The position numbers and the translations under genes are program-made. From Acidimicrobiia bacterium (GTDB lineage: Bacteria > Actinomycetota > Acidimicrobiia > Spongiisociales > ZC4RG35): a stretch of DNA of 64,000 nucleotides. Below are positions 9,774-61,668 of this stretch, in pieces. The stretch's first letter is position 1, and each line of letters opens with the position of its first letter. The stretch lies in NCBI GenBank assembly GCA_035250485.1, contig DATFFB010000214.1:8197-72196 (forward strand), given 5' to 3'. The notes under the pieces were generated by a model, which had not been told where the DNA came from, ran no database searches, and worked only from the letters and a program-made list of their open reading frames with translations.

Positions 9774-9791
9774 CAAGAACGAGGAAGTGAA

Positions 9792-10676
9792 ATGGTCGAG
9801 TGGGTAGAGGTTCGCGGAAAGAGCATCGAGGTGGCAGTGGCGGCGGCTATGAACGAGCTGGGGGTAACCGACCGCTCGGACGTCGACGTGGAAGTAGTAC
9901 AGGAACCCGAAAAGGGATTTCTCGGTTTGGGGGGTAGAGACGCCATTGTCAGGGTCAAGCCCCGGGCACGGCGGGCCCGGGGTCGGGACCGGGATCGTCG
10001 GCCCCGTACCGGCGCCAGCCGGACTGGTGGTTCGCGTCCCGAAGGTCGGAGTCGGGAGGCCCCTTCCCGCAGTGGCGGTCAACGGGGCAGTAATGCCCCT
10101 CGTTCCCAGGGTCGCAGCGGTGGAAACGCGCGCTCGGGCGCTCCCAGGACCAGAAGTCCAGAGGCGGCCAGCCGCAGCGAGCGGCCCCCGGTCGATGTCA
10201 ACCCCGCCGAGCAGGCGCCCGTGGTAGAGCAGTTCCTCCGGGGATTGGTTGAATCGTTCGGGCTCGAAGGCTCGGTGCGGGTGGAAATCGAGGAAGACGT
10301 CATCATTGCCACGGTCGAGGGAGAACAAACCGAGGCCCTGGTGGGGGTAAGGGGCTCGGTGCTCGACGCCGTCCACGAGATCACGAAAACCACCCTTCAC
10401 CGCCAGTTCAAGGACACCGCCCGGGTCCGCCTCGACATTGCCGGCTATTCGGAACGACGCCGTCAGGCTCTCAGTATCTACGCCGGCCAGCTCATCGAGC
10501 AGGTGATGAGCGAGGGTGGCGAGATCATGCTCGAACCAATGAGCGCGGCCGATCGGAAAGTCATCCACGACTCGGTGGCCGCGGTCGACGGCGTGCGGTC
10601 CTATTCCGAGGGCGAACCGCCACGGCGATATGTGGTGATCTCTCAGGTCGAAGACGAGGCCGACGACGAGGCTTAA
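9792..10676 (+). CDS. jag: Jag/KhpB-family RNA-binding protein (Jag_N, KH and R3H domains, with an Arg/Ser-rich linker)
   Basis: Conserved post-yidC position. The C-terminal KH/R3H region (…ATVEGEQTEALVGVRGSVLDAVHEITKTTLHRQ…) is recognisable. Confidence 0.9.
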   Translation: MVEWVEVRGKSIEVAVAAAMNELGVTDRSDVDVEVVQEPEKGFLGLGGRDAIVRVKPRARRARGRDRDRRPRTGASRTGGSRPEGRSREAPSRSGGQRGSNAPRSQGRSGGNARSGAPRTRSPEAASRSERPPVDVNPAEQAPVVEQFLRGLVESFGLEGSVRVEIEEDVIIATVEGEQTEALVGVRGSVLDAVHEITKTTLHRQFKDTARVRLDIAGYSERRRQALSIYAGQLIEQVMSEGGEIMLEPMSAADRKVIHDSVAAVDGVRSYSEGEPPRRYVVISQVEDEADDEA

Positions 10677-10691: not shown

Positions 10692-11282
10692 GTGAATCCT
10701 CGCCTGGAGGCTGCCGCCAGGGCCGTCGGGGTCACCCTTGATGACGGCATGAGGCAGCGCCTGGCGACCTTGGGAGGGTGGTTGACGACCGAGGCTCTGG
10801 CGGGCGGTGGGGTCGGCCCCAATGAGGCCGCCAAGATCGAGGAGAGGCACCTGGTGGATTCGATCCTCTTCGCGGCCGGGTGGGCGAGTGCCCCTCCGGT
10901 ATGCTGGGATCTGGGTTCGGGCGCCGGGCTCCCGGGGTTGGTGCTGGCTTGCATCTGGCCCGGCACCAGGCTGGTGCTGGTCGACTCTTCTGCCAAGCGC
11001 TGCGAGCTCGCCCGACGTGGAGGCCGTGTGGTGGGCGTCGATGTTGAAGTGCAGCAGTCCCGGATCGAGGATTTGACCGGGCCTTATTCCGCCATTGTCA
11101 GTCGGGCGACGATCCCCGCGGCGCGATTTGGTGGGATACTGAAACGGTTGCTGGCTCCCGGCGGGGTGGCTGTCATCTCGGGAAGTAGCCACGGCCATCC
11201 TCCGGGTTTTGAGCGCCTGCAGTTCCCGGGCGAGGAATTCTTTGATCGAACCTCCCGGCTTCTTATCATGCGCTCACCTTGA
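10692..11282 (+). CDS. rsmG: 16S rRNA (guanine527-N7)-methyltransferase RsmG (GidB)
   Basis: GTG start; SAM-binding motif DLGSGAGLPGLVLA and conserved synteny jag-rsmG-parA. Confidence 0.9.
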   Translation: MNPRLEAAARAVGVTLDDGMRQRLATLGGWLTTEALAGGGVGPNEAAKIEERHLVDSILFAAGWASAPPVCWDLGSGAGLPGLVLACIWPGTRLVLVDSSAKRCELARRGGRVVGVDVEVQQSRIEDLTGPYSAIVSRATIPAARFGGILKRLLAPGGVAVISGSSHGHPPGFERLQFPGEEFFDRTSRLLIMRSP

Positions 11283-12109
11283 ACGGCTCCTCCGCCATTA
11301 GCCCGGTCGAAGTCGGCTCCGAAACCCCGACGTCCGGCGTCGCCACCGTAGTTGCGCTGGCGAATCAAAAGGGTGGGGTGGGGAAGTCGACCACCGCCAT
11401 CAACCTGGCCGCGGCCCTGGCGATGCAGGGTCAGCGCTCGTTGATCGTCGACCTGGATCCGCAGGGCAATGCCACCTCAGGCCTCGGCATTGATCGGAGC
11501 GGGATCGCCGCTTCGATATATGACGTTCTTTTAAAGGACGTAGCAGTCGAGGACGCTATTGAACCGACCTCGGTCAAGAGCCTCTTTGTCCTCCCCGCCA
11601 CGATCGATCTGGCCGGGGCGGAAATCGAGTTGGTCCCGCTTCTGTCCCGAGAACAGCGGCTCCGTCAAGCCTTCGCTCCGATTCTCGAGGACTATCAGGT
11701 CATCTTTATCGACTGCCCTCCCTCACTTGGACTCCTGACGGTGAACGCCCTCACCGCTGCCCACGAGGTCCTTATCCCGATTCAGTGCGAGTACTACGCC
11801 CTCGAGGGCTTGAGCCAGTTGCTCAACAATGTGGACCTGGTCCGGCGGCAGCTGAATCCTCAACTGGTGATCGAAGGTGTGGTACTGACCATGTACGACT
11901 CCCGGACCAACCTTTCTCGCGACGTCGCCACCCAAGTGCGAAGTCACTTCGGGGATAAGACGTACCGGACCGTGATCCCGCGCTCGGTGCGGATTTCGGA
12001 GGCTCCCTCATATGGGGAGCCGATCGAGGCGCTCGACCCCATGGCTCGGGGGGCGATTGCCTATCGCGAGCTAGGTCGAGAGTTTCGGAGGCGTCATGGT
12101 CTCGACTAG
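11279..12109 (+). CDS. parA: Chromosome partitioning ATPase ParA (Soj)
   Basis: TTG start overlaps the rsmG stop by 4 nt. Deviant Walker A KGGVGKSTTAINLAAAL. Confidence 0.93.
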   Translation: MNGSSAISPVEVGSETPTSGVATVVALANQKGGVGKSTTAINLAAALAMQGQRSLIVDLDPQGNATSGLGIDRSGIAASIYDVLLKDVAVEDAIEPTSVKSLFVLPATIDLAGAEIELVPLLSREQRLRQAFAPILEDYQVIFIDCPPSLGLLTVNALTAAHEVLIPIQCEYYALEGLSQLLNNVDLVRRQLNPQLVIEGVVLTMYDSRTNLSRDVATQVRSHFGDKTYRTVIPRSVRISEAPSYGEPIEALDPMARGAIAYRELGREFRRRHGLD

Positions 12110-12118
12110 GAGGTTCCG

Positions 12119-12964
12119 ATGAGTCAGAAGCGCGGCCTGGGCAGAGGACTGGAAGCGCTGATCCCTTCGACCCCCGATCCCGAGCAAGGTTTCGCCGAGA
12201 TCGAGATCGACGAGATCCGGCCTAACCCGCAACAACCCCGGGGAGATTTCGACGACGAAGCGCTCTCCGGTCTGGCGGAGTCGATCAGGAGCCTCGGCCT
12301 TCTCCAGCCGGTGGTGGTCCGCCCCGATCCCGAGGGGGGCTATTTCCTGGTCGCCGGGGAACGCAGATGGCGGGCGGCTCGCAAGGCAGGGCTCAGTCGG
12401 ATTCCGGCCGTGATCCGGACGAGCGATGATCGGGAATGGCTTACCGCTGCCCTGGTCGAGAACCTGCAGCGGGCCGATCTCAATCCGTTGGAAGAGGCGG
12501 CCGCCTTTCAACAACTTCTGGAAGATTTTGGCTTAACGCACGAGGAGGTGGGTCGGAGAGTTGGGCGAAGCCGGGCGGCGATCACCAATTCGATTCGTCT
12601 ACTCGGGCTCCCTGCCTCGATCCAATCCCGGTTGGCGAGCGGAGAGCTCAGTGCCGGCCACGCCCGGGCTTTGGCGGCGATCGACGACCGGGCCTTCGCC
12701 GAGCACGTCGCCAAGCGGGCGGTGGCAGAAGGTTGGAGCGTTCGTCAGGTCGAGGAGGCGGTGCGTCTGCGGCGAGGTGAAGCCACGTCAGCGCCCCGTC
12801 TGCGCGAGGTTCGCCCCGCCGAGATCATCGAACTCGAGATGCGGCTTGCCGAGCGCTTGGGAAGCAAGGTCCGAGTCGACTTCCGCCAGGGCAAGGGGGC
12901 CCTACGAATCGACTATCGATCCCTCGAAGAGCTGGAGAAGATCTACCGAAGACTAATGAGCTGA
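12119..12964 (+). CDS. parB: Chromosome partitioning protein ParB (Spo0J)
   Basis: ParB box GERRWRAA and HTH region, 281 aa. Confidence 0.93.
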   Translation: MSQKRGLGRGLEALIPSTPDPEQGFAEIEIDEIRPNPQQPRGDFDDEALSGLAESIRSLGLLQPVVVRPDPEGGYFLVAGERRWRAARKAGLSRIPAVIRTSDDREWLTAALVENLQRADLNPLEEAAAFQQLLEDFGLTHEEVGRRVGRSRAAITNSIRLLGLPASIQSRLASGELSAGHARALAAIDDRAFAEHVAKRAVAEGWSVRQVEEAVRLRRGEATSAPRLREVRPAEIIELEMRLAERLGSKVRVDFRQGKGALRIDYRSLEELEKIYRRLMS

Positions 12965-12986
12965 GCACTCTCCGGCCCTCCTAACT

Positions 12987-13985
12987 TTGAGGTCACACAT
13001 GAGGCTTTATCGCCGGAGCGACACCGGAGACGCCGTGCGCGACATCCAGGGCCGCCTGCTCGCGCTTGGCTACCACCCCCAGAGCGATCCGGGGGGAGAG
13101 TTCGGGGCCGCCACCGAAGCGGCCGTGCGGGAATTTCAAAGCGATCGCGGCCTCACCGCCGACGGCGAGGTTGGACCCGAGACCTGGCGAGTGCTTTACG
13201 AAGCCGGTTACCGGTTGGGGGATCGGCTGCTTTTTCTGCGGCGCCCAATGTTGCGGGGAGAGGATGTGGCTGAGCTGCAGGGACGCCTCAGCCAACTCGG
13301 ATTCGATCCCGGCAAGGTGGATGGAATCTTTGGCCTCGAGACCGAGCAAGCGGTCCTCGAGTTTCAGCGCAATCGAGTCCTAACCGAGGATGGGATCGCC
13401 GGCCCCGAGGTTCTCACCGAGCTCCGACTGTTGGTCCGCGGAAAGATGCGAGCCGGACGAGAAACGGTGAGGGAGCGGGAATGGCTGCGGAGCTTGCCCG
13501 ACAGTGTCGTCGGGTCCCGGGTGTTCTTTGATGCAGCCTGTCGCACCCCGGAAGAAGCCCGGGCGACGTGGGTGGCGGCGAGCTCGGCGGCGATGGAGCT
13601 GCAGGCGCGAGGTGGCCAGCCGATTCTGGGTCGTGCCGCCGACACGCGGCTCCCGGAACGAGTACGGGCCGGGCGGGCCAATCGCCTGGGGGCGGAACTG
13701 GTGGTGTCATTTCAGGTTCGGGCGGATGGGGGCCCGGCGGCGGTCTTTTACTTCGCCAGCGATCGGGGAGTCTCACGGGCAGGGGAGATGCTCGCCAACC
13801 GAATCGCCGAGACCGCCGGGGGGCTTGTGGAGGGGCGCGCTACCGCCATCCTGCGCGATACCAGGGCGCCGTCGGTGATCGTTTCACATCCCGAGCTCGG
13901 AACCGAAATCGGACGCCTGGTGGTTGACGGCCTGGCGCAGTTCTTCGCTACGGCAGCCTTGGAAACCTCAGATTCGAAGACTTAA
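12987..13985 (+). CDS. cwlM: N-acetylmuramoyl-L-alanine amidase with two peptidoglycan-binding domains (CwlM-like)
   Basis: Two PG_binding_1 repeats (…GDAVRDIQGRLLALGY…, …GEDVAELQGRLSQLGF…) followed by an amidase_3-like C-terminus. Same neighbourhood (parB / trx / sigM) as mycobacterial cwlM. Confidence 0.8.
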   Translation: MRSHMRLYRRSDTGDAVRDIQGRLLALGYHPQSDPGGEFGAATEAAVREFQSDRGLTADGEVGPETWRVLYEAGYRLGDRLLFLRRPMLRGEDVAELQGRLSQLGFDPGKVDGIFGLETEQAVLEFQRNRVLTEDGIAGPEVLTELRLLVRGKMRAGRETVREREWLRSLPDSVVGSRVFFDAACRTPEEARATWVAASSAAMELQARGGQPILGRAADTRLPERVRAGRANRLGAELVVSFQVRADGGPAAVFYFASDRGVSRAGEMLANRIAETAGGLVEGRATAILRDTRAPSVIVSHPELGTEIGRLVVDGLAQFFATAALETSDSKT

Positions 13986-14058
13986 GACAAGAGACAAAAG
14001 ACGAAAGACAAAAGAAAAAAGAGTCTCTGGTCTTTCAGCCCGCCGAAGGCGGGCGATC
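13986..14058. repeat. Dispersed AT-rich heptamer-repeat element, copy A: (RAAAGAC)n tract plus GC hairpin
   Basis: gacaagagacaaaagacgaaagacaaaagaaaaaagag followed by gtctctggtctttcagcccgccgaaggcgggcgatctt. Sits between convergent cwlM and trxA stops; the hairpin GCCCGCC-gaag-GCGGGC could act as a bidirectional terminator. Confidence 0.6.
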
Positions 14059-14385
14059 TTAAGCCAGAAATTCCGACAGTTCGGAGACGAGGTTGTGCTT
14101 AGGGCGGGCGCCGATGATTCGCTTCTTCTCGACTCCATCCTGAAAGAGGATCAGGGTCGGGATGCTCATCACGTCATACTCGCCGGAAATCTGCGGATTC
14201 TCGTCGACATTGAGCTTGCCGATTCGAAGCTTGCCGTCGTACTCGGTGGCCATCTCGTCGAGGATGGGGGCAATCAACCGACAGGGTCCGCACCACTCGG
14301 CCCAAAAATCGACCAGGATGGGAGTTCCTCCCGCAATGGTCTGATCGAAGCTCGACTTGTCGAGGATGACGGTGTTTTCAGTCAT
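14059..14385 (-). CDS. trxA: Thioredoxin
   Basis: WCGPC active site, 108 aa. Confidence 0.93.
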   Translation of the reverse strand: MTENTVILDKSSFDQTIAGGTPILVDFWAEWCGPCRLIAPILDEMATEYDGKLRIGKLNVDENPQISGEYDVMSIPTLILFQDGVEKKRIIGARPKHNLVSELSEFLA

Positions 14386-14444
14386 GTGTTTCCTTTCCTA
14401 CCAAAGGCCAACCCATACCCGGTCGGCCTCATTCCAACACTGGT

Positions 14445-15374
14445 CTATTCCGCCAGCGATTCGAGGTAATGCTGAGCATCCAGGGCCGCCATACAGCCGG
14501 TGCCGGCGGCGCTGACTGCCTGGCGATACCGGGAATCGGCCACGTCACCGGCCGCGAATACACCCGGGACATCGGTAGCCGTGGTTCCGTCCCCTTTCAG
14601 GATCAGGTAGCCGCGCTCGTCGAGGCGGAGGCTGTCGGCGAAGATGGCGGTGTTGGGGATGTGACCGATAGCTACGAACACCCCATCGGCGGCCAGGCGC
14701 TCCTTCTCACCGGTCTCGGTGTTGACCAGCGTGACCGCCTGAACGCCCTTGTCTCCCAGGATCTCTTCGACCAGTGAGTTCCATCGGACTTTGATCTTGG
14801 GGTGGTCGAGCACCCGTTGAGCCATGATCGCCGAGGCCCGGAACTCATCCCGCCGATGGACGACTGTCACTTGAGAGGCGAAGCGGGTGAGGAACAGCGC
14901 CTCCTCCATGGCCGAGTCACCCCCGCCGACCACGACCAGTTCCTTGTCCCGGAAGAAGAATCCATCGCAGGTGGCGCACGAGGAAACCCCGCGGCCGGTG
15001 AGGCGCTCTTCACCGGGAATGCCTAGCCATTTCGCCGCCGCCCCGGTGGCGATGACGACGGATCGAGCTTTATGACCGTTGTCGCCGGTGAAGACCTCGA
15101 AGGGATCGGAGGAAAGGTCCACCGCGGTGACGTCGGTGGCAACGAGGCGCGCCCCAAATCTCTCGGCCTGCTTGCGAAACTGGTCCATGAGCTCAGGCCC
15201 AAGAATGCCGCCCGGGAAACCTGGATAGTTCTCAACGTCGGTGGTGATCATGAGCTGGCCGCCGGGTTGAGTGCCTTCGAAAACGAGCGGCTTCAAGTCG
15301 GCTCGGGCCGCGTAGAGGGCGGCAGTGAGGCCGGCGGGCCCGCTGCCGATGATGATGACGTTTTCGGTTGTCAC
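14445..15374 (-). CDS. trxB: Thioredoxin-disulfide reductase
   Basis: FAD/NADPH motifs (GSGPAG…) and the CATC redox-active site, 309 aa. Confidence 0.95.
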
Positions 15375-15646
15375 GAAGCCTTTTTCCTATTGCCCCACAA
15401 GATGAACCCGAAGATGAGCACGACGAGGCCGAGGACACCGAAGGCCCCATCGGAACCGAGCGGAATGGCCAGGGCGCCGTAAATGGAAAGCACAAGAAAC
15501 ACCAGCGCCAGCAACCCCAGAGTGAGAGCTGCCATTCCCAACGAAGAGAGGCGGATCCAGCGGCTGATTCGATCGACGGTGAGCGACCGAATCCGGGTAG
15601 CGACCATCTCCAGAAAATCGGCAAACCGGGCTGGAAAGTCGTCCAC
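15371..15646 (-). CDS. Small hypothetical membrane protein (2 predicted TM helices)
   Basis: GTG start; 91 aa with two hydrophobic helices. Overlaps the trxB start by 4 nt, suggesting translational coupling. Confidence 0.5.
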
Positions 15647-15654
15647 CTGTTCAG

Positions 15655-15745
15655 ATTAGATCTGAGACAAAAGACGAAAGACAAAAGACGAAAGATCGGA
15701 GATGTCTTGGGGTCCTTCAGCCGCCGGAGGCGGGCGATCTTCTGT
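15655..15745. repeat. Dispersed AT-rich heptamer-repeat element, copy B
   Basis: gagacaaaagacgaaagacaaaagacgaaagat followed by gtcttggggtccttcagccgccggaggcgggcgatctt. The tail is about 85% identical to the tail of copy A. Lies between the anti-sigma stop and the small membrane protein start. Confidence 0.6.
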
Positions 15746-15753
15746 CGGTCGCC

Positions 15754-16473
15754 CTATGGCAACACGATTTCGGAGCAGTCGTCGAGGAAGAACGCGCGCG
15801 GGGAGAGTTCGCCGTCGTCTTCCACCAGGAGCAACAACACCTGCCGGCCCTGATAGGTGCTTTCCCCTCGTTCCTCGATGGCGAGGTCCTCGGTCTCCTC
15901 GACGCAGGAGACCGACGCGTCTCCTGCGGGCGTACCTTCGTCAGCCAGCGCCTCGGCCTCGGCTTTGAGCTCGTCGAGGTCCCCTCCAGCTTCAAGTTGC
16001 GCGAGTGTGGCCGAGGCGGCGGTGGTGGCGGTCGCTCGTTCCGTATTGGTGGCGCCGCCAGCGGCGAACTCGGGAGCGGCCGCGTCGGCGGCCATGGACG
16101 TGGTGGCGGCATTGCCCGATCCCTGCTGGCTAGCGATGGTCGCGCCCACCCCAACCACAACCGCCAGTGCAGCGGCGGCGGCCATCATCCGGCCCCAGAT
16201 CGGGCTCATGGGTTTGGTCTCGGTCTTGCGCCGCATCGGAACCGGCAGGGCGGCGGTGATCGCTGTCGCCATTTGTGACTGCTCGCGCTCGGTCAATTGG
16301 GCGGAGCCGACCCCCGCCAGAAGCGAGCGCAGCTGCAATTGCTCTTCGAACAACACCCGGCACTCCGCGCACCCCGAGATCAGGGCTTCGGCCGCGACTC
16401 GATCGGGTTCATAGCCTGAGGCATGAGCCGCCAAAAGCTCGAGATCGTGCGCGTCGTGATTCATCCTGCTCAT
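15754..16473 (-). CDS. Anti-sigma factor (membrane-spanning, RsmA-like)
   Basis: Immediately downstream of the ECF sigma with a 4-nt overlap. N-terminal cytoplasmic domain with a C-x2-C motif (GCAECRV), a central TM segment (…AAAAALAVVVGVGATIA…) and an Ala/Thr-rich extracytoplasmic tail. Confidence 0.6.
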   Translation of the reverse strand: MSRMNHDAHDLELLAAHASGYEPDRVAAEALISGCAECRVLFEEQLQLRSLLAGVGSAQLTEREQSQMATAITAALPVPMRRKTETKPMSPIWGRMMAAAAALAVVVGVGATIASQQGSGNAATTSMAADAAAPEFAAGGATNTERATATTAASATLAQLEAGGDLDELKAEAEALADEGTPAGDASVSCVEETEDLAIEERGESTYQGRQVLLLLVEDDGELSPRAFFLDDCSEIVLP

Positions 16474-29290: not shown

Positions 29291-30600
29291 CCCTTTGGGG
29301 CGGCCGCTTCTCTTCGACGCCCAATCAGGAAATGTGGGATTTCACCGTCGATCATGCCGATCGACGGTTGCTCTCCTTTGACATCGAGGGTTCGGCTGCC
29401 CATGTCGAGATGCTGACCAAGGTCGGGCTGCTCGACGCTGACGAAGGAGCGGAGCTGGGGAAAGGGCTGCAGGCAATCGCCGAAGAGGCCACCGCCGGTT
29501 CCTTCCAGTTCTTCGACACCGATGAGGATGTCCACACCGCGGTCGAGCGCCGACTCATTGAGCTGGTGGGCGAGGTCGGTGGCAAGTTGCACACTGGACG
29601 CTCCCGCAACGACCAGATCGCCCTCGACCTCCGCCTTTATCTACGGTCCGCGGTTGGTGCTCGCCGCCACGATCTTGCCGCCGTTATCTCCGTGCTGGCA
29701 GACCAGGCTGCACGACACCGCGAGACAGCCGTAGCCACCTATACCCACCTCCAGCAGGCCCAGCGCTCGACTCTGGGGCATCAGTTGCTGGCTCACGCCT
29801 GGGCAATACGTCGCGACCACGAGCGCCTGGCTGATCTCGAGAAGAGGCTTTTGGTATCACCGCTCGGCGCCGGCGCCTCGGCAGGGTCATCCCTTCCGCT
29901 CGATCCCGCCCAGACAGCCGCCCGGCTCGGGTTTGCCACCGTCTTTGAGAACTCGCTCGACGCGGTTTCGAGCCGTGACCTCGTATCCGAGTTTGGCTTT
30001 GTCGCCACTCAGGCGATGGTCCACTTTTCCCGTCTGGCCGAAGAGCTCGTGCTCTGGTCCTCGCTCGAGTTCGGCTGGGTGCAGCTCGCCGACGAGTTCA
30101 CGACCGGCTCGTCGGCTTTGCCGCAGAAGAAGAATCCGGATGTGGCCGAGCTGGTGCGGGGGCGCGCCGCGGGTGCGATTGGCCAGCTGACCGGATTGCT
30201 TGCATTGCAGAAGGGCCTTCCGCTCTCCTACAACCGAGATCTCCAAGAGGACAAGCCGGCGCTCTTCTGGCTCGACGATACGTTGGGGGCAAGCAGCCGA
30301 GCTCTTGCCCGGCTAATCGCTACCGCTACTTTCGACCCGCCCCCACCCTCGGTTTGGACCGACGCCCTCGGCATCGCCGAGAATCTCGTCCGCCGAGGGA
30401 TTGCCTTCCGCGCTGCTCACGAGATGGTGGGAAAACTCGTCGCTCGTCTGCTGGCGGACGGACACAATCTCGCCGATGTCGATCCCGGCGACCTCGCTGC
30501 CACCGGCTTGCAGCCCTCCGATCTCGAGGTGGTCCGCTCTCACGCAGGACTCTCCATCGACGAGCAGATCGCCCGCCTCCGCCAATCCGTTCTTGCGTAG
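29287..30600 (+). CDS. argH: Argininosuccinate lyase
   Basis: Fumarate-lyase signature (…[12 protein letters not shown]…), 437 aa. Confidence 0.96.
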
Positions 30601-30637
30601 ATTTCGCCGCAAAAACCGGTCCATTTCTACGCAAGAA
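30589..30637. repeat. Palindromic element copy 1 (TTCTTGCGTAGA … TCTACGCAAGAA, 12-13 bp perfect arms, 25-bp spacer)
   Basis: The left arm contains the argH TAG stop and the right arm ends at the azlC ATG. The same arms recur at 47368-47419. Confidence 0.6.
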
Positions 30638-37954: not shown

Positions 37955-38045
37955 CAAGAAAGACAAAAGACAAAAGACGAAAGACTTCAGATATCAGACA
38001 TCAGAGTGGGAGAAAGGAGTGGCCGCCCGGTAGGGGGCGGCCACT
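37955..38045. repeat. Dispersed AT-rich heptamer-repeat element, copy C (most complete: both heptamer types plus hairpin)
   Basis: aagaaagacaaaagacaaaagacgaaagac + ttcagatatcagacatcagag + hairpin gtggccgcccggtagggggcggccac. Lies in the divergent region between the histidine phosphatase gene and pyrE. Confidence 0.6.
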
Positions 38046-47273: not shown

Positions 47274-47275
47274 TG

Positions 47276-47346
47276 AGCGGATGAGGGGAATCGAACCCCC
47301 ACTTCAGGCTTGGGAAGCCCGTGTTCTGCCGTTGAACTACATCCGC
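47276..47346 (-). tRNA. tRNA-Gly (anticodon CCC); CCA not encoded
   Basis: Hand-folded: acceptor stem GCGGATG/CATCCGC, D-arm GTTC-AACGGCA-GAAC, anticodon stem CGGGC/GCCTG with loop TTCCCAA, T-arm GGGGG-TTCGATT-CCCCT. Coordinates +/- 1. Confidence 0.85.
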
Positions 47347-47367
47347 GGGGGCCAGGAGGTTACCAAT

Positions 47368-47419
47368 CCATTCTTGCGTAGAAATGGGCACATTTATGCG
47401 GCCATTTCTACGCAAGAAG
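47368..47419. repeat. Palindromic element copy 2 (CCATTCTTGCGTAGAAATGG … CCATTTCTACGCAAGAAG, 17 bp arms, 14-bp spacer)
   Basis: Same arm sequence as 30589-30637. Lies 22 bp from the 5' end of tRNA-Gly and at the 3' end of a small minus-strand membrane ORF. Confidence 0.6.
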
Positions 47420-54381: not shown

Positions 54382-56346
54382 CTAGACCGGGGGTTCGGTT
54401 CCCATCCCGAGTTTGCGGAGAAAGGCTTCGTTGTTGGGTTCGCGGCCGAGAAAGGCCCGTAAGTGCTCCATCCCGTCCCGGCTCCCACCCCGCTCGAGAA
54501 CCTCCCGGCGGTAATCGGCGCCGACCTCGGGATTGGTGACCCCTTCTTTCTCGAACCGGCTCCACATGTCGTCCCCGTACACCTCCGACCAGAGATAGCC
54601 GTAGTAGCCGGCGTCATATCCCCCCAATAGGTGTCCAAAGGACGCCGGATAGAAGGTGTCGGGGTGGACCGGAAAGAGACTGACTTGCGTCGAGCGGACG
54701 TGGATATCGTCGAGGTCCTTTTGCGGTGTCTCGTCGTGCATCCACATGTCGAGCAGCCCGAATTGGGCCTGGCGCAGTGTCAGCAAGGCAATGTTGAGGT
54801 TCTTGGCGGCGGTGAGCTGGGAGACCAGCTCGGGCGGGATCGGTTGACCGGATTGATAGTGACGGGCGAAGCGGGCCAAGACCTGGGGCTGCCAGGTCCA
54901 GTTCTCCATGATCTGGCTGGGGGCCTCGACGAAGTCGCCCTCCGTGGAGGTGCCGGAGAACTTGGTGAGCTCGGCCCTGGTCAGGGTTTGATGGAGAATG
55001 TGGCCGAACTCGTGAAAGAAGGTCTCGACCTCTTGGTGCTGGAGGAGGGAAGGTCGTTCGGTCCCGGGCTTGGTGAAGTTCGCGACGATCGCCGCCATTG
55101 GCTTCTGGTAGCTGCCGTCGGCAAGCCGACGTCCGGGAATCAGCGGGAAGGCGGCGGCATGGCTGAACTTTCCCTCCCGCGGGAAGAGATCCATGAAGAA
55201 ATGGGCGATTTCTTGGCCGGTGGCGTCGTCGTCGATGGCATAGGCGAGAACGTCTGGGTGCCAGGAAGGTCGATCGACCTTCCGATAACGGAGCCCGAAG
55301 ACCTCGCCGGTCAGCTCGAGCATCCCGTCGAGGACTTGCTGGAGAGGGAAGTGAGCCGCCACTTCGGTCGGGTCGACGCCATAGTCGCGCCGGCGAAGCT
55401 GGGTGTCGTAGTAACGGAAGTCGTAGCCCTGGAGCTCGCCGTCGAACCCATCGGCTCGCAGCATCTCGGTGAGCTTTCCGAGCTCGGTTTGGCCGATCTC
55501 GGAAAGACCGGGGAGCAGGGCGGCGTAGAAGGAGCGGACCGCCTCTGGATTCTTGGCCATCTTCTCTTCGAGCTGGTGGTGCGCCCACGAAGGTTGAGAG
55601 AAGATCTCGGCGATCCTCTGACGCGCCGCGATTGCTTCCTCGAGTAGCGGTCGGTTGGGTTCAACTGCTCGACTGTTGAACTTACGGGAGAGCTCCTCGC
55701 GGAGATCGCGGCGGGGTGAGTTCTCCATGAACGGGACCACGTCGGGATACGCCATGGTCACCTTTAACGTGCCCTCGGTGTCTCCGGCTTCAAGTCCCTC
55801 GATATAGGACTCCGGCATCCCCTCGAGATCATCCCGGGTGACCAGTAGGTGGTCTTGATGCTCGTCGATGTTGCGCTGGAAGAGCACTCCCAGCTCAACC
55901 AGTCGCTCGGTGAGCTTTTTGACCTCGGCCCGCGAGTCATCGTCGAGCTCGTGTCCCGCCTTGCGCAGGTCCCGGAGGAGAAACTCGAGCATCCGGCGGC
56001 GCTCACCTGTTAGGCCTGCGGCCTCCGGGGATTCCGAGTAGGACTTGATGGCGCGGTAGAAATCAGGCCGAAAGACCAGCTCCACGGCCCACTTCTGGAT
56101 TCGCTCCTCGGCGGCATTGCCGGCATCGCGGACCTCCTTCTCGGTGTGGACATAACCCATGAATGCTGTCCGGCCATAGGTACGAACCAATAGATCCTCG
56201 ATGTCGTTCAGCGGAGCAAGAACGCTGTCGTAAGTGGCTTCGGCCGTCGGATCCACGACTCCGGCCACGAGTCGATCCGCTTCAGAAAGGGCGGCGTCGA
56301 GATCCTCACTGATCCCCGAAGCGGTCACCTGGGTGTAGTCGAACAT
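54382..56346 (-). CDS. M3-family oligoendopeptidase / peptidyl-dipeptidase
   Basis: HEFGH zinc motif (…FFHEFGHILHQ…) and M3 fold, 654 aa. Confidence 0.9.
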   Translation of the reverse strand: MFDYTQVTASGISEDLDAALSEADRLVAGVVDPTAEATYDSVLAPLNDIEDLLVRTYGRTAFMGYVHTEKEVRDAGNAAEERIQKWAVELVFRPDFYRAIKSYSESPEAAGLTGERRRMLEFLLRDLRKAGHELDDDSRAEVKKLTERLVELGVLFQRNIDEHQDHLLVTRDDLEGMPESYIEGLEAGDTEGTLKVTMAYPDVVPFMENSPRRDLREELSRKFNSRAVEPNRPLLEEAIAARQRIAEIFSQPSWAHHQLEEKMAKNPEAVRSFYAALLPGLSEIGQTELGKLTEMLRADGFDGELQGYDFRYYDTQLRRRDYGVDPTEVAAHFPLQQVLDGMLELTGEVFGLRYRKVDRPSWHPDVLAYAIDDDATGQEIAHFFMDLFPREGKFSHAAAFPLIPGRRLADGSYQKPMAAIVANFTKPGTERPSLLQHQEVETFFHEFGHILHQTLTRAELTKFSGTSTEGDFVEAPSQIMENWTWQPQVLARFARHYQSGQPIPPELVSQLTAAKNLNIALLTLRQAQFGLLDMWMHDETPQKDLDDIHVRSTQVSLFPVHPDTFYPASFGHLLGGYDAGYYGYLWSEVYGDDMWSRFEKEGVTNPEVGADYRREVLERGGSRDGMEHLRAFLGREPNNEAFLRKLGMGTEPPV

Positions 56347-56420
56347 TGCCCGAAGATATCAGACGCCGGATTTCAGAAGACAAAAGCAAAAGACATCAGA
56401 TATCAGATGTCAGACTTCAG
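56347..56420. repeat. Dispersed AT-rich heptamer-repeat element, copy D ((TCAGAY)n-rich, no hairpin)
   Basis: gatatcagacgccggatttcagaagacaaaagcaaaagacatcagatatcagatgtcagacttcagatga. Fills the 70-bp gap between the amidohydrolase stop (which it overlaps) and the M3 peptidase start inside a minus-strand operon. Confidence 0.6.
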
Positions 56421-57868
56421 ATGAAGGTGGGTGGGGTGGTGAGTTCCAGCCGCTGGCCGCGGCGGTACGAGGCGAGGACCCTCGTGCCGGCGACGTCAGC
56501 GGTCCGCAAAGGGTCGCGATCGATGACGATCACGTTGGAAGGTCCGCCCACCTTGAGAGACGGCCCGTAGAGCTCGTAGGCGGATCCGGCGCTGAGGCCA
56601 CCGATTCGCGCCGCCGCCATTCCTTCCCAGGGATTTGGGGTTTCTACCGGGCAGTCCGAGCCTCCCCGCAGCGGTATGCCTTCTTCTTCCATCCGACCCA
56701 GCGCATAGGTGTGTCCGACCCGGCGTCCGAGCCTCTTCTTGAGCCAGGTCACCTCCGATGTGATGAAGCTCGGCTGCACTGAGGCGGTGATGCCGAGGTG
56801 GGCCATGCGCCGGCGGGCGGTGGGGGTGAGCACGGACGCATGCTCGATGCGAAGAGCAGCTTCGTTTGCGCCTGCGACCATCAGGTCACGAAGGAGGTCG
56901 AGAACTGCGTCGTTGGCTCGATCACCAATGGCGTGGATGGCCACCGCCCCGCCGAGGTCGAGAGCCGCTCGTGCCATCTCGTCGGCGTGGGGGCGACGCA
57001 GGCGCATGATGCCCACATTGTCGGGGTCATCGCTGAAGCCTTCATGGAGAGCTGCGGTACGACCACCGAGGGCTCCGTCGGCAAACTCCTTCCACCCGTC
57101 GAACCTCAGGTTGCTGCCTGCACCCTGCAGCGCTGCGGCAGCAGAGCCCAGACTCGGAGGATCGGGTGCCGTCACTAGTACCTCGAAATCAAGAGGCACC
57201 CTGGGGGCCAGGGAGATCAGGGTGGTCAATTCCTCCGGCACCTCGCAAAAGAGCGGGTCGCCCGCCGAAACGATGGCAGTGATCGTCCCCAGCCCCAGGC
57301 TGGCCAGGCCCACGAGCGACTGTTCGACGATTTCAGGGGCCAAGGGGGACTGCCTTGAGCCGACCTCACGCAGAACGGGCGCGATCTCTTCTTCGCGCAG
57401 GATGCCGTCAGGGTGATCGCTGAGGCCGGCCAATGCCAGAGCCGCACTGTTGGCGACGGCGACGTGGACGCAGTAGCGATGGAGCAAGAGCGGCGTCGTC
57501 CCCACCATCTCGTCTAGCTCCCAGCGGTTGGGGAGACGTAGTTCGGAAAGGGCCTCGTCGTCGAGGCGGGTGGCCGTCAATGATTCGCCCGGTTGCAAAC
57601 GCGCTGCCGCCGCCTGCAGCCGCTTTCGGAGGCCATCGAAATCGGGCACATCTTTGAGGGTGAGCCGGGAGACGGCAGCGGCGTAGCCCAGGGGATGGAA
57701 GTGGTGATCGTGACGAGGTGCGCTGAGGAAGCCTTCGTGTTGGCTCACCTCGTAGGTGCCGTCGAACTCGGCGCGACGACCGATGGCCACAATCCGATCA
57801 GCGTCGATCAGGACCGAGTCGGCGTCGGGGATGCCGACGATGCCCGAGGAGGTGAGAAGACGTCTCAT
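56417..57868 (-). CDS. Amidohydrolase-family protein (amidohydrolase_3)
   Basis: Metal-dependent hydrolase motifs (…DHHFHPLG…, …AIHAIGD…, …GSDCP…). Start MRRLLTSSG at 57868 overlaps the upstream stop (ATGA). Confidence 0.85.
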   Translation of the reverse strand: MRRLLTSSGIVGIPDADSVLIDADRIVAIGRRAEFDGTYEVSQHEGFLSAPRHDHHFHPLGYAAAVSRLTLKDVPDFDGLRKRLQAAAARLQPGESLTATRLDDEALSELRLPNRWELDEMVGTTPLLLHRYCVHVAVANSAALALAGLSDHPDGILREEEIAPVLREVGSRQSPLAPEIVEQSLVGLASLGLGTITAIVSAGDPLFCEVPEELTTLISLAPRVPLDFEVLVTAPDPPSLGSAAAALQGAGSNLRFDGWKEFADGALGGRTAALHEGFSDDPDNVGIMRLRRPHADEMARAALDLGGAVAIHAIGDRANDAVLDLLRDLMVAGANEAALRIEHASVLTPTARRRMAHLGITASVQPSFITSEVTWLKKRLGRRVGHTYALGRMEEEGIPLRGGSDCPVETPNPWEGMAAARIGGLSAGSAYELYGPSLKVGGPSNVIVIDRDPLRTADVAGTRVLASYRRGQRLELTTPPTFI

Positions 57869-58659
57869 CGGATGTGTTCCGGAATGGCGAGGCCCACTGC
57901 CGCCACTAAATCGTCGTGGATGCCACCGTTGCTGGCCACGATGCCGCTGTCGTCGAGGCGGTATGGCTTGCCGCGATGATTCGTGACCGTGCCTCCAGCT
58001 TCGGTAATCATCAGTACTCCGGCGCCGGTGTCCCAGGGACTGATCCCGAACTCCCAGTATCCGTCGTATCGACCACACGCGACCCAGGCCAGATCGAGGG
58101 CCGCGCTGCCAAGCCGCCGGATTCCCTGCACCCGGGTGAGTACGTGGCCGAGATTCTCGGCATAAGCCTCTCCATGGACGTTGCGGTCATACGGAAAACC
58201 GGTAGCGATCATGGCGTGCTTGAGGACTCGCTCCTCGGAGACCTTGATCGGATCGGCCTCGATTTCCGATCCCTTCCCGTGTTGGGCGATGAACTCCTCG
58301 TGTCGGGTGACGTCCTCGATCACCCCCACAGCCGGCTGCCCGTCAACCCATAGGGCGACCGAAACCGAGACGTGGGGGATCCCGTGGATGAAGTTGACGG
58401 TCCCATCGAGGGGGTCGACGATCCAGACCCTTCCCTCTTCCCAGCCGGTGCCACCGCTCTCCTCGGCCAGGATGGCGTCGTGAGGCCGGAGCCTCCGCAA
58501 CAATCCGATGATCGCTTCCTCAGCCTGGTTATCGATGTCGGTGACGGGATTGGCGTCGCCCTTGAAACGAGTACCGACAGCCGATCCCAGGGCCGCGAAG
58601 ACGATGGCGGCCCCGGTTCGGGCGGCATCGACGGCAACCTCGAGGTCGGAGGGTCTCAC
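57865..58659 (-). CDS. Inositol monophosphatase family protein (SuhB/CysQ-like)
   Basis: IMPase motifs (…WIVDPLDGT…, …WDTGAG…), 264 aa. Confidence 0.88.
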   Translation of the reverse strand: MRPSDLEVAVDAARTGAAIVFAALGSAVGTRFKGDANPVTDIDNQAEEAIIGLLRRLRPHDAILAEESGGTGWEEGRVWIVDPLDGTVNFIHGIPHVSVSVALWVDGQPAVGVIEDVTRHEEFIAQHGKGSEIEADPIKVSEERVLKHAMIATGFPYDRNVHGEAYAENLGHVLTRVQGIRRLGSAALDLAWVACGRYDGYWEFGISPWDTGAGVLMITEAGGTVTNHRGKPYRLDDSGIVASNGGIHDDLVAAVGLAIPEHIR

Positions 58660-61185: not shown

Positions 61186-61668
61186 TCAGGTCGGCAGCGC
61201 TCCCATTTGGACCAAGATGCTCAATAGGTTTTCCAGATGCCAGGCTTCCGTAAGCTTGCCATCTTTCACCAGCCAGATGTCGATTGCTTCAAACTCGACT
61301 GGCTGTCCCGTCGGTTCCACGTTCAAGAAGTTGCCATCGTGTGTTCCTCGACCGCGGGAATGGACCGTTACGTAATCGCCGCTAACGAGCACCAGATCGG
61401 GCTCAGATGTCAGATCCGAAAATCCGCTGGCGAACTCTCGCATGGCGGTCTTGAGGCCCCCAAGGCCGGTCGGCTGGCCAGGAACCGCATCGTGATCGAC
61501 GAAGTCAGTGGCTACGAGTTCATCGTATGCGTCGAAGTTGCGAGCGTTCGTCTCCACATAGAATCGTCTGGCAAGCGCTTCTTTGGCATCCACGGGCCCC
61601 TCCTCGGATAGTGCGCGAGAAAATGTTTCATCGTGCGGGGAGGATCGATCATAAGCGGGCATCACCAA
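61186..61668 (-). CDS. SnoaL-like / ester cyclase (NTF2-fold) protein
   Basis: 160 aa with a conserved cyclase-like segment (…NARNFDAYDELVATDFVDHD…). Confidence 0.7.
   Translation of the reverse strand: MVMPAYDRSSPHDETFSRALSEEGPVDAKEALARRFYVETNARNFDAYDELVATDFVDHDAVPGQPTGLGGLKTAMREFASGFSDLTSEPDLVLVSGDYVTVHSRGRGTHDGNFLNVEPTGQPVEFEAIDIWLVKDGKLTEAWHLENLLSILVQMGALPT

Follow-up and report, generated by a model that had tools for sequence, protein, structure and literature searches.

Does a short heptamer array that overlaps a stop codon between two co-directional genes represent a mobile element inserted into an operon, a cis-element acting on the coupling of the two cistrons, or a repeat that arose where it now stands? 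The question was raised by one spacer in a 64-kb stretch of DNA from an Acidimicrobiia bacterium (64,000 nt, hereafter the window), for which the original prediction, made from the letters of the sequence, had put forward the first two readings. Heptanucleotide simple-sequence repeats are a known and fairly ordinary kind of repeat in bacteria. As the work of Mrazek et al. (2007) is summarised in PMC4679880, no class of long simple-sequence repeats (LSSRs) is more abundant in prokaryotes, and their proposed cause is polymerase slippage. No description of such repeats in Acidimicrobiia was found in the literature searched.

Gene organisation of the locus

Pfam annotation agreed with the prediction that the genes on both sides of the array, both on the minus strand, encode an amidohydrolase and an M3 peptidase. 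The Amidohydro_3 gene (56417..57868, minus strand; Pfam E 5.6e-45 on the ORF 56417..58078) encodes 483 aa, and its start was placed at the ATG at 57868, not at the GTG at 58078, based on the translation and on 483-aa orthologues. The protein ends in T-T-P-P-T-F-I followed by TGA, and this stop codon (56417-56419) lies within the first heptamer. The M3 family oligopeptidase gene (54382..56346, minus strand; Peptidase_M3, Pfam E 2.7e-127, and homologues) encodes 654 aa and starts with an ATG (56346→56344) that has no Shine-Dalgarno sequence (SD) upstream. The two co-directional genes are separated by 70 nt (56347-56416), and the coding strand between them reads ACC TTC ATC TGA AGTCTGA CATCTGA TATCTGA TGTCTTT TGCTTTT GTCTTCTGAAATCCGGCGTCTGATATCTTCGGGCA ATG.

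Structure of the heptamer array

The core tandem array (56381..56422, minus strand), defined from the sequence, TRF and shuffles, consists of six heptamers in a 7-nt register. On the coding strand (56422→56381) these are ATCTGAA GTCTGAC ATCTGAT ATCTGAT GTCTTTT GCTTTTG, and two unit types, RTCTGAY and GTCTTTY, make up the tract. TRF reported a period-7 array of 4.6 copies at 56391-56422. The two-unit motif TCAGAYNTCAGAY, with one mismatch or none, was counted 6 times in the window where 0.88 were expected, a number that 0/100 shuffles reached. With its head-to-tail units and a length greater than chance, the tract is a heptanucleotide simple-sequence repeat. The tract and its reach into the end of the amidohydrolase gene were as predicted, and the statement that it fills the 70-bp gap was true of the distal part, whereas the 7-nt register holds for only about 42 nt (56381-56422).

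The proximal 28 nt (56353-56380) do not keep this register, and a -10-like box lies there. In a direct-repeat search, 56354..56380 (minus strand) proved to repeat the 27 nt nearest the stop (56398-56424) in diverged form; this internal duplication of the spacer has 81% identity and a spacing of 44 nt. TGA occurs in all three coding-strand frames within three units of the array. A search against Rfam 15 gave no match with E ≤ 1 in 56250-56520, and a single tRNA was the only hit in the window at gathering score; a structured RNA was ruled out by this result and by a fold z-score of -1.2 for the whole spacer against shuffles.

Comparison of orthologous spacers

The M3 protein, for which the contig index contained no exact match, placed the window in an uncultured Acidimicrobiia lineage. 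A homology search gave a ladder of M3 orthologues whose identity fell from 100% to about 60%, and every fetched locus showed the same synteny (Inositol_P, Amidohydro_3, spacer, M3). At the top of the ladder, the spacer of the window (M3 100%, 70 nt) contained the six in-register heptamers and the diverged copy, that of L001 (97%, 79 nt) five to six TCTGA units and then GTCTTTG-like units, and that of L263 (95%, 90 nt) a tiling of RTCTNNN as far as the -10 box. Degenerate heptamers were found in L002 (93%, 73 nt) and TTGTCTN units in L003 (89%, 106 nt). Further down, L005 (77%, 42 nt) had small hairpins and no heptamers, L006 (74%, 214 nt) had three copies of the 12-mer repeat GAGCACCGACCT instead of heptamers, and L008 (68%, 61 nt) had a GC hairpin of -25.8 kcal/mol.

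When the relatives were checked for presence or absence of the 70-bp insert, the spacer was present in 9/9 of those examined, with lengths of 42-214 nt. Its ends were homologous across relatives (RTC-TGA-A at the stop, GATATCYTCG at the -10 box), and its middle changed by degrees, with heptamers where M3 identity was 95% or more, degenerate heptamers at 93% and 89%, and GC hairpins or other sequence at 77% or less. Since the stop-proximal (A/G)TC-TGA-A was found even in L005, which has no array, the unit overlapping the stop codon is an ancestral Val or Ile codon plus TGA, and it plausibly served as the seed of the array. The tract is non-coding, and the spacer lengths in the genus (70, 79, 90, 73 and 106 nt) fit length changes by multiples of the unit.

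These results bear directly on the proposal that a small mobile element of MITE, REP or MIRU type had been inserted into an operon spacer. The homologous spacer ends, the unit-sized indels, the graded rather than present-or-absent orthologues and the derivation of the stop-codon unit from coding sequence all stand against it, and copy D, as the array is called below, lacks both terminal inverted repeats and a target-site duplication, its only palindromes being internal and derived from the heptamers. MIRU units are 40-100 bp long with small ORFs, lie between co-directional genes and overlap stop or start codons, while MITE and REP elements are palindromic or sharply bounded and occur as many near-identical copies. 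Compared by description, copy D resembles these elements in lying between co-directional genes, in having one orientation relative to transcription and in overlapping the upstream stop. It differs from them in having a unit of 7 nt, no small ORF, no defined ends and no palindromic unit. An inserted mobile element was therefore considered a very improbable origin for this tract, and the dispersed copies that might still speak for it are treated with the repeat family of the window.

The spacers of the window and L001 aligned with 53/83 identical columns and an indel block some 14 nt long (about two units); in the M3 gene next to them, 88.7% of third codon positions were identical. The rate of change in the interior is therefore no lower than that of synonymous sites. 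Such a rate, together with the relatives whose spacers contain no heptamers, is what would be seen if the heptamers were a neutral by-product, that is, filler from a tendency towards 7-nt repeats in AT-rich non-coding DNA whose edges at the stop codon and the -10 box are incidental. This explanation, the main rival of the reading preferred here, was regarded as possible but doubtful. Against it, the window and L002 agreed in all 17 nt around the -10 box, with only 65% identity at third codon positions; further evidence on either side is given with the strains, the repeat family and the wider survey.

Candidate leaderless promoter of the M3 gene

An extended -10 box, TG-A-TATCTT (56353..56361, minus strand), was recognised from the sequence and its conservation in orthologues as part of a putative leaderless M3 promoter. 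TATCTT occupies 56358→56353 and TG 56361→56360, and the six bases CGGGCA lie between the box and the ATG. The first T of TATCTT is thus at -12 from the M3 ATG and the TG at -15/-14. In all 8 distinct spacers, a TANNNT was found 6-9 nt 5' of the M3 ATG (9 nt in L001) with no SD.

The same arrangement was frequent nearby. TANNNT-N6-start with no SD was found in 6/23 called genes of L001, against about 0.2 expected from a base-composition estimate, and other genes of L001 have clear SDs. At locus B, another site of the repeat family, the 91-aa gene has TAATCT-N6-GTG in the window and in L250 and TAACCT-N6-GTG in L254, kept while the upstream sequence changes. In the L008 spacer, the hairpin of -25.8 kcal/mol is followed by TTGACT-N15-TAATTT-N6-ATG. 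A sigma-70 consensus scan passed no promoter, although Actinobacteria are not expected to conserve a -35, so the case for a -10-only promoter is built on conservation together with the genome-local TANNNT-N6-start signature.

In Actinobacteria, leaderless genes are marked by a TANNNT that lies about 12 nt upstream of the start codon (PMC3160421, PMC6448022), and a quarter of mycobacterial transcripts are leaderless (PMC6448022). As read from its sequence, the region upstream of M3 carries this signature of a leaderless sigma-A promoter, and it is like known leaderless promoters in the position of TANNNT, the missing SD, the conserved position and the frequency of the arrangement in neighbouring genes. 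It differs from them in that the -10 box of M3 keeps the register of the heptamer repeat, from which it seems to derive.

Most likely, then, M3 is transcribed alone, and the last repeat unit serves as the -10 box of its promoter. Because TANNNT is conserved, no SD is present and L008 has a hairpin and TTGACT-N15-TAATTT between the genes, separate transcription is likelier than an operon, and the amidohydrolase and M3 genes are probably separate transcription units. The supposed intra-operon placement was thus not supported by the relatives. With a promoter of its own for M3, the array would lie upstream of the M3 mRNA, and translational coupling would not be an issue. Of the suggestion that the array is a cis-element modulating the coupling of the cistrons, a cis role at the gene boundary is retained as plausible, but as a transcriptional one (terminator and promoter). 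On this reading, the tract is neither an inserted mobile element nor a translational coupling device.

Candidate terminator of the amidohydrolase gene

A terminator-like scan and ViennaRNA identified a weak hairpin, GACATC-N8-GATGTC (56392..56411, minus strand; -8.0 kcal/mol), formed by two heptamers that pair with each other in a stem of 6 pairs (3 GC) with a loop of 8. The terminator-like scan also showed a T-rich tail, TTTTGCTTTT (56382..56391, minus strand), which belongs to the GTCTTTT units and lies 3' of the hairpin. Hairpin and tail pass a simple terminator scan, yet the predicted fold is weak. The GACATC-N8-GATGTC stem was also found in L263, and an imperfect form with 5/6 pairs in L001. 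Hairpin and T-rich units together look like a weak intrinsic terminator of the amidohydrolase gene as predicted by these programs, and transcription of that gene would end at the hairpin and its U-tract.

The hairpin stands at the position taken by GC hairpins in the spacers of distant relatives.

A repeat-built spacer between two probably separate transcription units

The reading that we hold to be probable, with some reserve, is that an in-situ heptanucleotide repeat forms a terminator-to-promoter spacer between two transcription units. The tract arose, and turns over, in place by unit-sized duplications and deletions within a pre-existing spacer, slippage being the presumed mutational mechanism. 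Its first unit is the last codon and stop of the amidohydrolase (ATC-TGA-A). Two middle units would then pair as the weak hairpin and, with the T-rich GTCTTTT units that follow, would act as a weak terminator for the amidohydrolase. The last recognisable unit (GTCTGAT-ATCTT) would supply the TG-extended -10 of the M3 promoter, and the M3 mRNA would start at its ATG or within 3 nt of it. The use of the -10 box, the M3 transcription start and the 3' end of the amidohydrolase transcript are all deduced here from the arrangement of the bases.

This result corrects an attractive but wrong reading, since what appeared to be a stop-overlapping repeat in an operon is a home-grown simple-sequence repeat at a probable transcription-unit boundary. 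The orthologue series offers a natural example, in a high-GC actinobacterial lineage, of how putative terminator and promoter spacers are rebuilt from repeats, with the GC hairpin of distant relatives giving way to heptamers in close ones and the candidate leaderless -10 box remaining fixed.

Stability of the array among strains

Seven assemblies of one species-level population (L001 and L257-L262; at least 99.5% nucleotide identity in M3) had an identical 79-nt spacer except for one SNP. Strain-level copy-number polymorphism was therefore absent from the seven assemblies of the L001 species, the species of the window being represented by one assembly. The spacer is thus not a hypermutable phase-variation tract, and its constancy also speaks against neutral filler.

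A tract of this kind could have been a contingency switch in which gain and loss of heptamers toggle M3 expression, as at hmw of Haemophilus influenzae. There the (ATCTTTC)n repeat overlaps the -10 of P2 and the -35 of P1 and forms one arm of an RNA hairpin, and copy number and the RNase III-cleaved hairpin tune expression (PMC8262952, PMC12721329). The units are nearly alike (ATCTTTC against GTCTTTC and ATCTGAT), so copy D shares with hmw1A/hmw2A a near-identical unit (RTCTTTC), a position that abuts or overlaps promoter boxes and the capacity to form a hairpin. The hmw repeats, unlike copy D, have 11-24 or more perfect units, vary both between and within strains and give graded phase variation; copy D is a short, imperfect array of about 6 units that is constant between strains. 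M3 is, moreover, a housekeeping-type cytoplasmic oligopeptidase and not a surface antigen. The constancy of the seven assemblies largely refutes a phase-variable switch, which was rated most unlikely.

The heptamer family in the window

The further copies implied in the prediction were confirmed (13968-14022, 15657-15709 and 37955-38005), and together with the array described above they form family A, B, C and D, the top direct-repeat family of the window. Copy A (13968..14054, minus strand) has a GC hairpin (14038-14054) and then GTCTTTY heptamers; the genes on its two sides, trxA and PG_binding, are convergent, and the TAA stop of PG_binding (13983-13985) is in the array. Copy B (15653..15735, minus strand) consists of a GC hairpin (15720-15735), four GTCTTTY units and TAATCT (15658→15653). 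Its hairpin comes after an anti-sigma-like gene, and six bases separate its TAATCT from the GTG (15646) of the 91-aa gene, the first gene of the trxB-trxA operon. Copy C (37955..38045, minus strand), with a GC hairpin, three TCTGA and four GTCTTTY units, lies upstream of a histidine phosphatase gene (His_Phos_1, GTG at about 37942).

The pyrimidine-rich strand was the minus strand, which is the sense strand, in 4/4 arrays, and a TCTGA-to-GTCTTT junction was common to C, D and L001. The recurrence of two unit types across four unlinked loci, always in one orientation, and the shared junction count against neutral filler. Unit type and even strand, on the other hand, flipped between genomes of 97% relatedness at loci A and B, as neutral filler would allow. 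At locus B, the window has GTCTTTY units (107 nt), the 97% relative TCTGA units and two GC hairpins (166 nt), and the 87% relative a GC hairpin only. At locus A, the units of the 97% relative are on the opposite strand, and the 87% relative has an AT-rich hairpin with the arms AAAGACAAGA and TCTTGTCTTT.

Copies A and B of the window have a 37-nt hairpin module in common, matching at 29/32 positions, and an identical 25-nt array segment. Alike over about 75-90 nt, they are recent paralogues. The module at locus A of the 97% relative (L250/L251) repeats one from locus B in inverted orientation, so that modules of hairpin plus heptamers are now and then copied from one spacer to another close by. 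Such copying, and a dispersed family of four copies in 64 kb, are what a mobile element would have in its favour. Copy D, however, has only heptamers in common with A-C and no full-length consensus with them beyond the heptamers, and the A/B hairpin module was absent from all 249 other loci searched. Given like units at four unlinked loci and the A/B paralogy, a purely in-situ origin applies to the locus of copy D and not to the family. The term recombinogenic is thus apt in so far as the tract is repeat-driven and the A/B modules were copied between loci, but copy D itself shows in-situ turnover.

The T-rich arrays were also considered as U-tails of the GC hairpins of A-C, and this was rejected because at A the array starts about 17 nt past the stem and C is in an apparently divergent region.

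Heptamer arrays in other lineages

Four-unit TCTGANN arrays were found in at least 120 species-representative genomes, which belonged to more than 10 phyla among the matches listed. Three-unit GTCTTTN arrays were found on at least 120 metagenome contigs, with GC contents from 27% to 71% among the matches listed; two of these, L159 and L222, join GTCTTT and TCTGA units as in the window. The orientation of the arrays was determined with a heuristic gene caller (ORFs and codon scores) with the arrays masked, which reproduced the known genes of the window. Among the matches listed, the gene downstream of TCTGA arrays in the genomes was on the same strand in 45 cases and on the opposite strand in 60. 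For GTCTTT arrays in the metagenomes, again among the matches listed, the downstream gene was on the same strand in 36 and on the opposite strand in 51, and the upstream gene in 28 and 54, respectively. The idea that the pyrimidine strand is generally the sense strand, as an RNA-level element needs, was rejected, since neither the TCTGA nor the GTCTTT counts are sense-biased. The lack of a consistent gene orientation across phyla argues against any single strand-specific function, and an orientation that is random or weakly reversed among the matches listed favours neutral filler.

A census of tandem periods was made with TRF over 263 loci, more than 400 nt away from the targeted arrays. Period 7 was the commonest (132 arrays), against 20 arrays of period 6, 35 of period 8, 87 of period 9 and 93 of period 12. 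The heptamer units were highly diverse, with TCT on either strand in only 43/132, which ruled out TCTGA or RTCT as a special universal unit. With diverse units and a dominant period 7, the general phenomenon is the 7-nt period and not the RTCTGAY/GTCTTTY sequence. The same observations favour neutral filler, as does the rank of heptanucleotides as the most abundant LSSR class in the account of Mrazek et al. given in PMC4679880. A survey of short tandem repeats (PMC12699852) contained nothing on 7-nt units.

Like LSSRs and the cyanobacterial STRR heptamers, the tract has head-to-tail 7-nt non-coding units with variants within the array, a scattered distribution among lineages and a dominant period 7. 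Unlike them, copy D is short, imperfect and strain-stable, with two unit types joined at a recurrent junction and a placement from stop codon to -10 box. With this locus, Acidimicrobiia join the scattered set of lineages in which 7-nt repeats abound.

A protein reading of the units was also weighed. Bacillus subtilis CspB has the in-vitro consensus 5'-GTCTTTG/T-3', with C at position 3 and T at 2, 4 and 6 preferred (PMC1904285). This is matched by GTCTTTT at D and by GTCTTTC/T at A, B and C, while the TCTGA units match positions 2-4 only. TAACTGA heptamers of marine Beggiatoaceae, Cyanobacteria and Bacteroidetes lie just 5' of SD-less start codons (MacGregor 2015, PMC4679880), and S1, Csp or CsrA have been proposed as their binders in Beggiatoaceae (PMC4679880). 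They resemble copy D in being 2-6 tandem intergenic heptamers in forward orientation before SD-less starts, with a unit one base off TATCTGA, and S1 and Csp are candidate binders for both. They differ in abundance (169 sets per genome, against 4 copies in 64 kb here) and in having a dominant unit, which is lacking here, and copy D, given the leaderless-type -10, is probably upstream of the M3 transcript and not in a 5' UTR.

On this basis, each RTCTNNN in single-stranded RNA or DNA might bind a single protein with a cold-shock domain or S1-like OB fold, and the resulting filament would keep the region unstructured for antitermination, translation or promoter opening. The fit of GTCTTTT, GTCTTTC and GTCTTTG units to the CspB consensus, the retention of T2-C3-T4 in the TCTGA units, the binders proposed for the Beggiatoaceae heptamers and the pyrimidine strand being the sense strand in 4/4 window arrays are in its favour. 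The 4/4 count in a single window is, however, not significant, locus A is flipped in L251, and the array lies outside the M3 mRNA if this is leaderless. In the metagenomes, the GTCTTT arrays listed were oftener antisense (54 against 28 upstream, 51 against 36 downstream), and TCT was absent from most of the 132 untargeted heptamer arrays. The orientation counts and the unit diversity argue against a general role as a Csp platform despite the striking CspB match, and such a platform was judged improbable.

A bolder version, to which slightly less credence still was given, holds that RTCTNNN tracts (GTCTTTY, RTCTGAY and the Haemophilus ATCTTTC) are cross-phylum cis-elements read unit by unit by a conserved OB-fold protein that binds single strands, for example a cold-shock protein. 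They would serve as protein-loaded insulators after hairpins and before promoters, and would spread by array-mediated ectopic copying as at A and B.

Tandem repeats in the window and comparison loci

Outside the targeted arrays (the TCTGANN and GTCTTTN pattern matches), period 7 was by far the commonest tandem-repeat period in the window and the comparison loci L001-L263, with 132 arrays of very diverse unit sequences. For comparison, there were 66 arrays of period 14, 35 of period 8 and 20 of period 6. The amidohydrolase-M3 peptidase spacer of L006, a relative with 74% M3 identity, was 214 nt long (9787-10000) and identical in L007; in place of heptamers it had a different tandem repeat, GAGCACCGACCT, in three copies.

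Among the TCTGANN-array matches listed from species-representative genomes (L010-L129), an inverted partner within 150 nt of the array was found in the order (TCAGA)n...(TCTGA)n in 18 cases, versus 1 in the reverse order. Whichever strand is read, the favoured order would give a hairpin whose 3' arm is the pyrimidine-rich one, resembling a bidirectional terminator. A two-unit TCAGATGTCAGAT match at 61403-61415 of the window was located inside a minus-strand ORF from the heuristic gene caller; it was isolated, lacked flanking repeats and probably arose by chance.

Copies A and B of the heptamer array

Copies A and B (window 13960-14066 and 15647-15756) formed direct repeats on either side of the operon containing a 91-aa gene, trxB and trxA. 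A hairpin module of 37 nt, AAGATCGCCCGCCTYCGGCGG(G)CTGAARGACC, was common to both, as was an array segment of 25 nt that was identical in the two copies. In the 97% relative, the module at locus A (L251 1722-1774) differed from this one and was an inverted copy of a hairpin module found at locus B (L250 3560-3728). The sharing between copies A and B, together with the inverted module in the relative, suggests that nearby spacers undergo concerted evolution or ectopic copying.

The genes at about 11246-16473 of the window followed the order ECF sigma/anti-sigma-like, 91-aa gene, trxB, trxA, PG_binding (cwlM-like), parB and parA, and gidB and jag came next in the relatives. This agrees with the origin-proximal order sigM-trxB-trxC-cwlM-parBA of other Actinobacteria, which probably places the window near oriC.

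Palindromic 56-nt repeats

Two direct repeats of 56 nt with 77% identity were located at 30582-30637 and 47363-47418. Both, of the form TTCTTGCGTAGA...TCTACGCAAGAA, were long palindromes. The first ended at the ATG of a plus-strand gene (30637), and the second was located between tRNA-Gly(CCC) (47275-47346, minus strand) and a minus-strand ORF whose end faced the repeat. An att-bounded island seems unlikely because DnaB and, as synteny with the 89% relative (L003) indicates, probably ribosomal protein genes as well sit between the repeats. A shared operator or a palindromic repeat is possible.

Translation starts and putative inteins

The ATG of the amidohydrolase (57868) and the stop codon of the Inositol_P-type ORF preceding it (57865..58659) overlapped by 4 nt (57865-57868), so translation of these two genes is probably coupled, in contrast to the amidohydrolase-M3 pair. 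In the mechanical ORF list, the amidohydrolase was over-extended to the GTG at 58078.

The leaderless signature TANNNT-N6-start is typical of Actinobacteria, and no published description of it for this lineage was found in the literature searched. Across the whole L001 locus (97% relative), TANNNT-N6-ATG/GTG without a Shine-Dalgarno (SD) sequence preceded 6 of the 23 called genes. It also preceded the 91-aa gene that lies upstream of trxB (window 15644-15658; L250 3729), and clear SDs were observed at other genes.

Two genes in relatives appear to carry inteins: a 514-aa dCTP deaminase gene with a faint LAGLIDADG match in the 93% relative (L002 18891-20435), and a 916-aa DnaB gene with Intein_splicing and LAGLIDADG in L006 (21035-21965). 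Their counterparts in other relatives were apparently intein-free.
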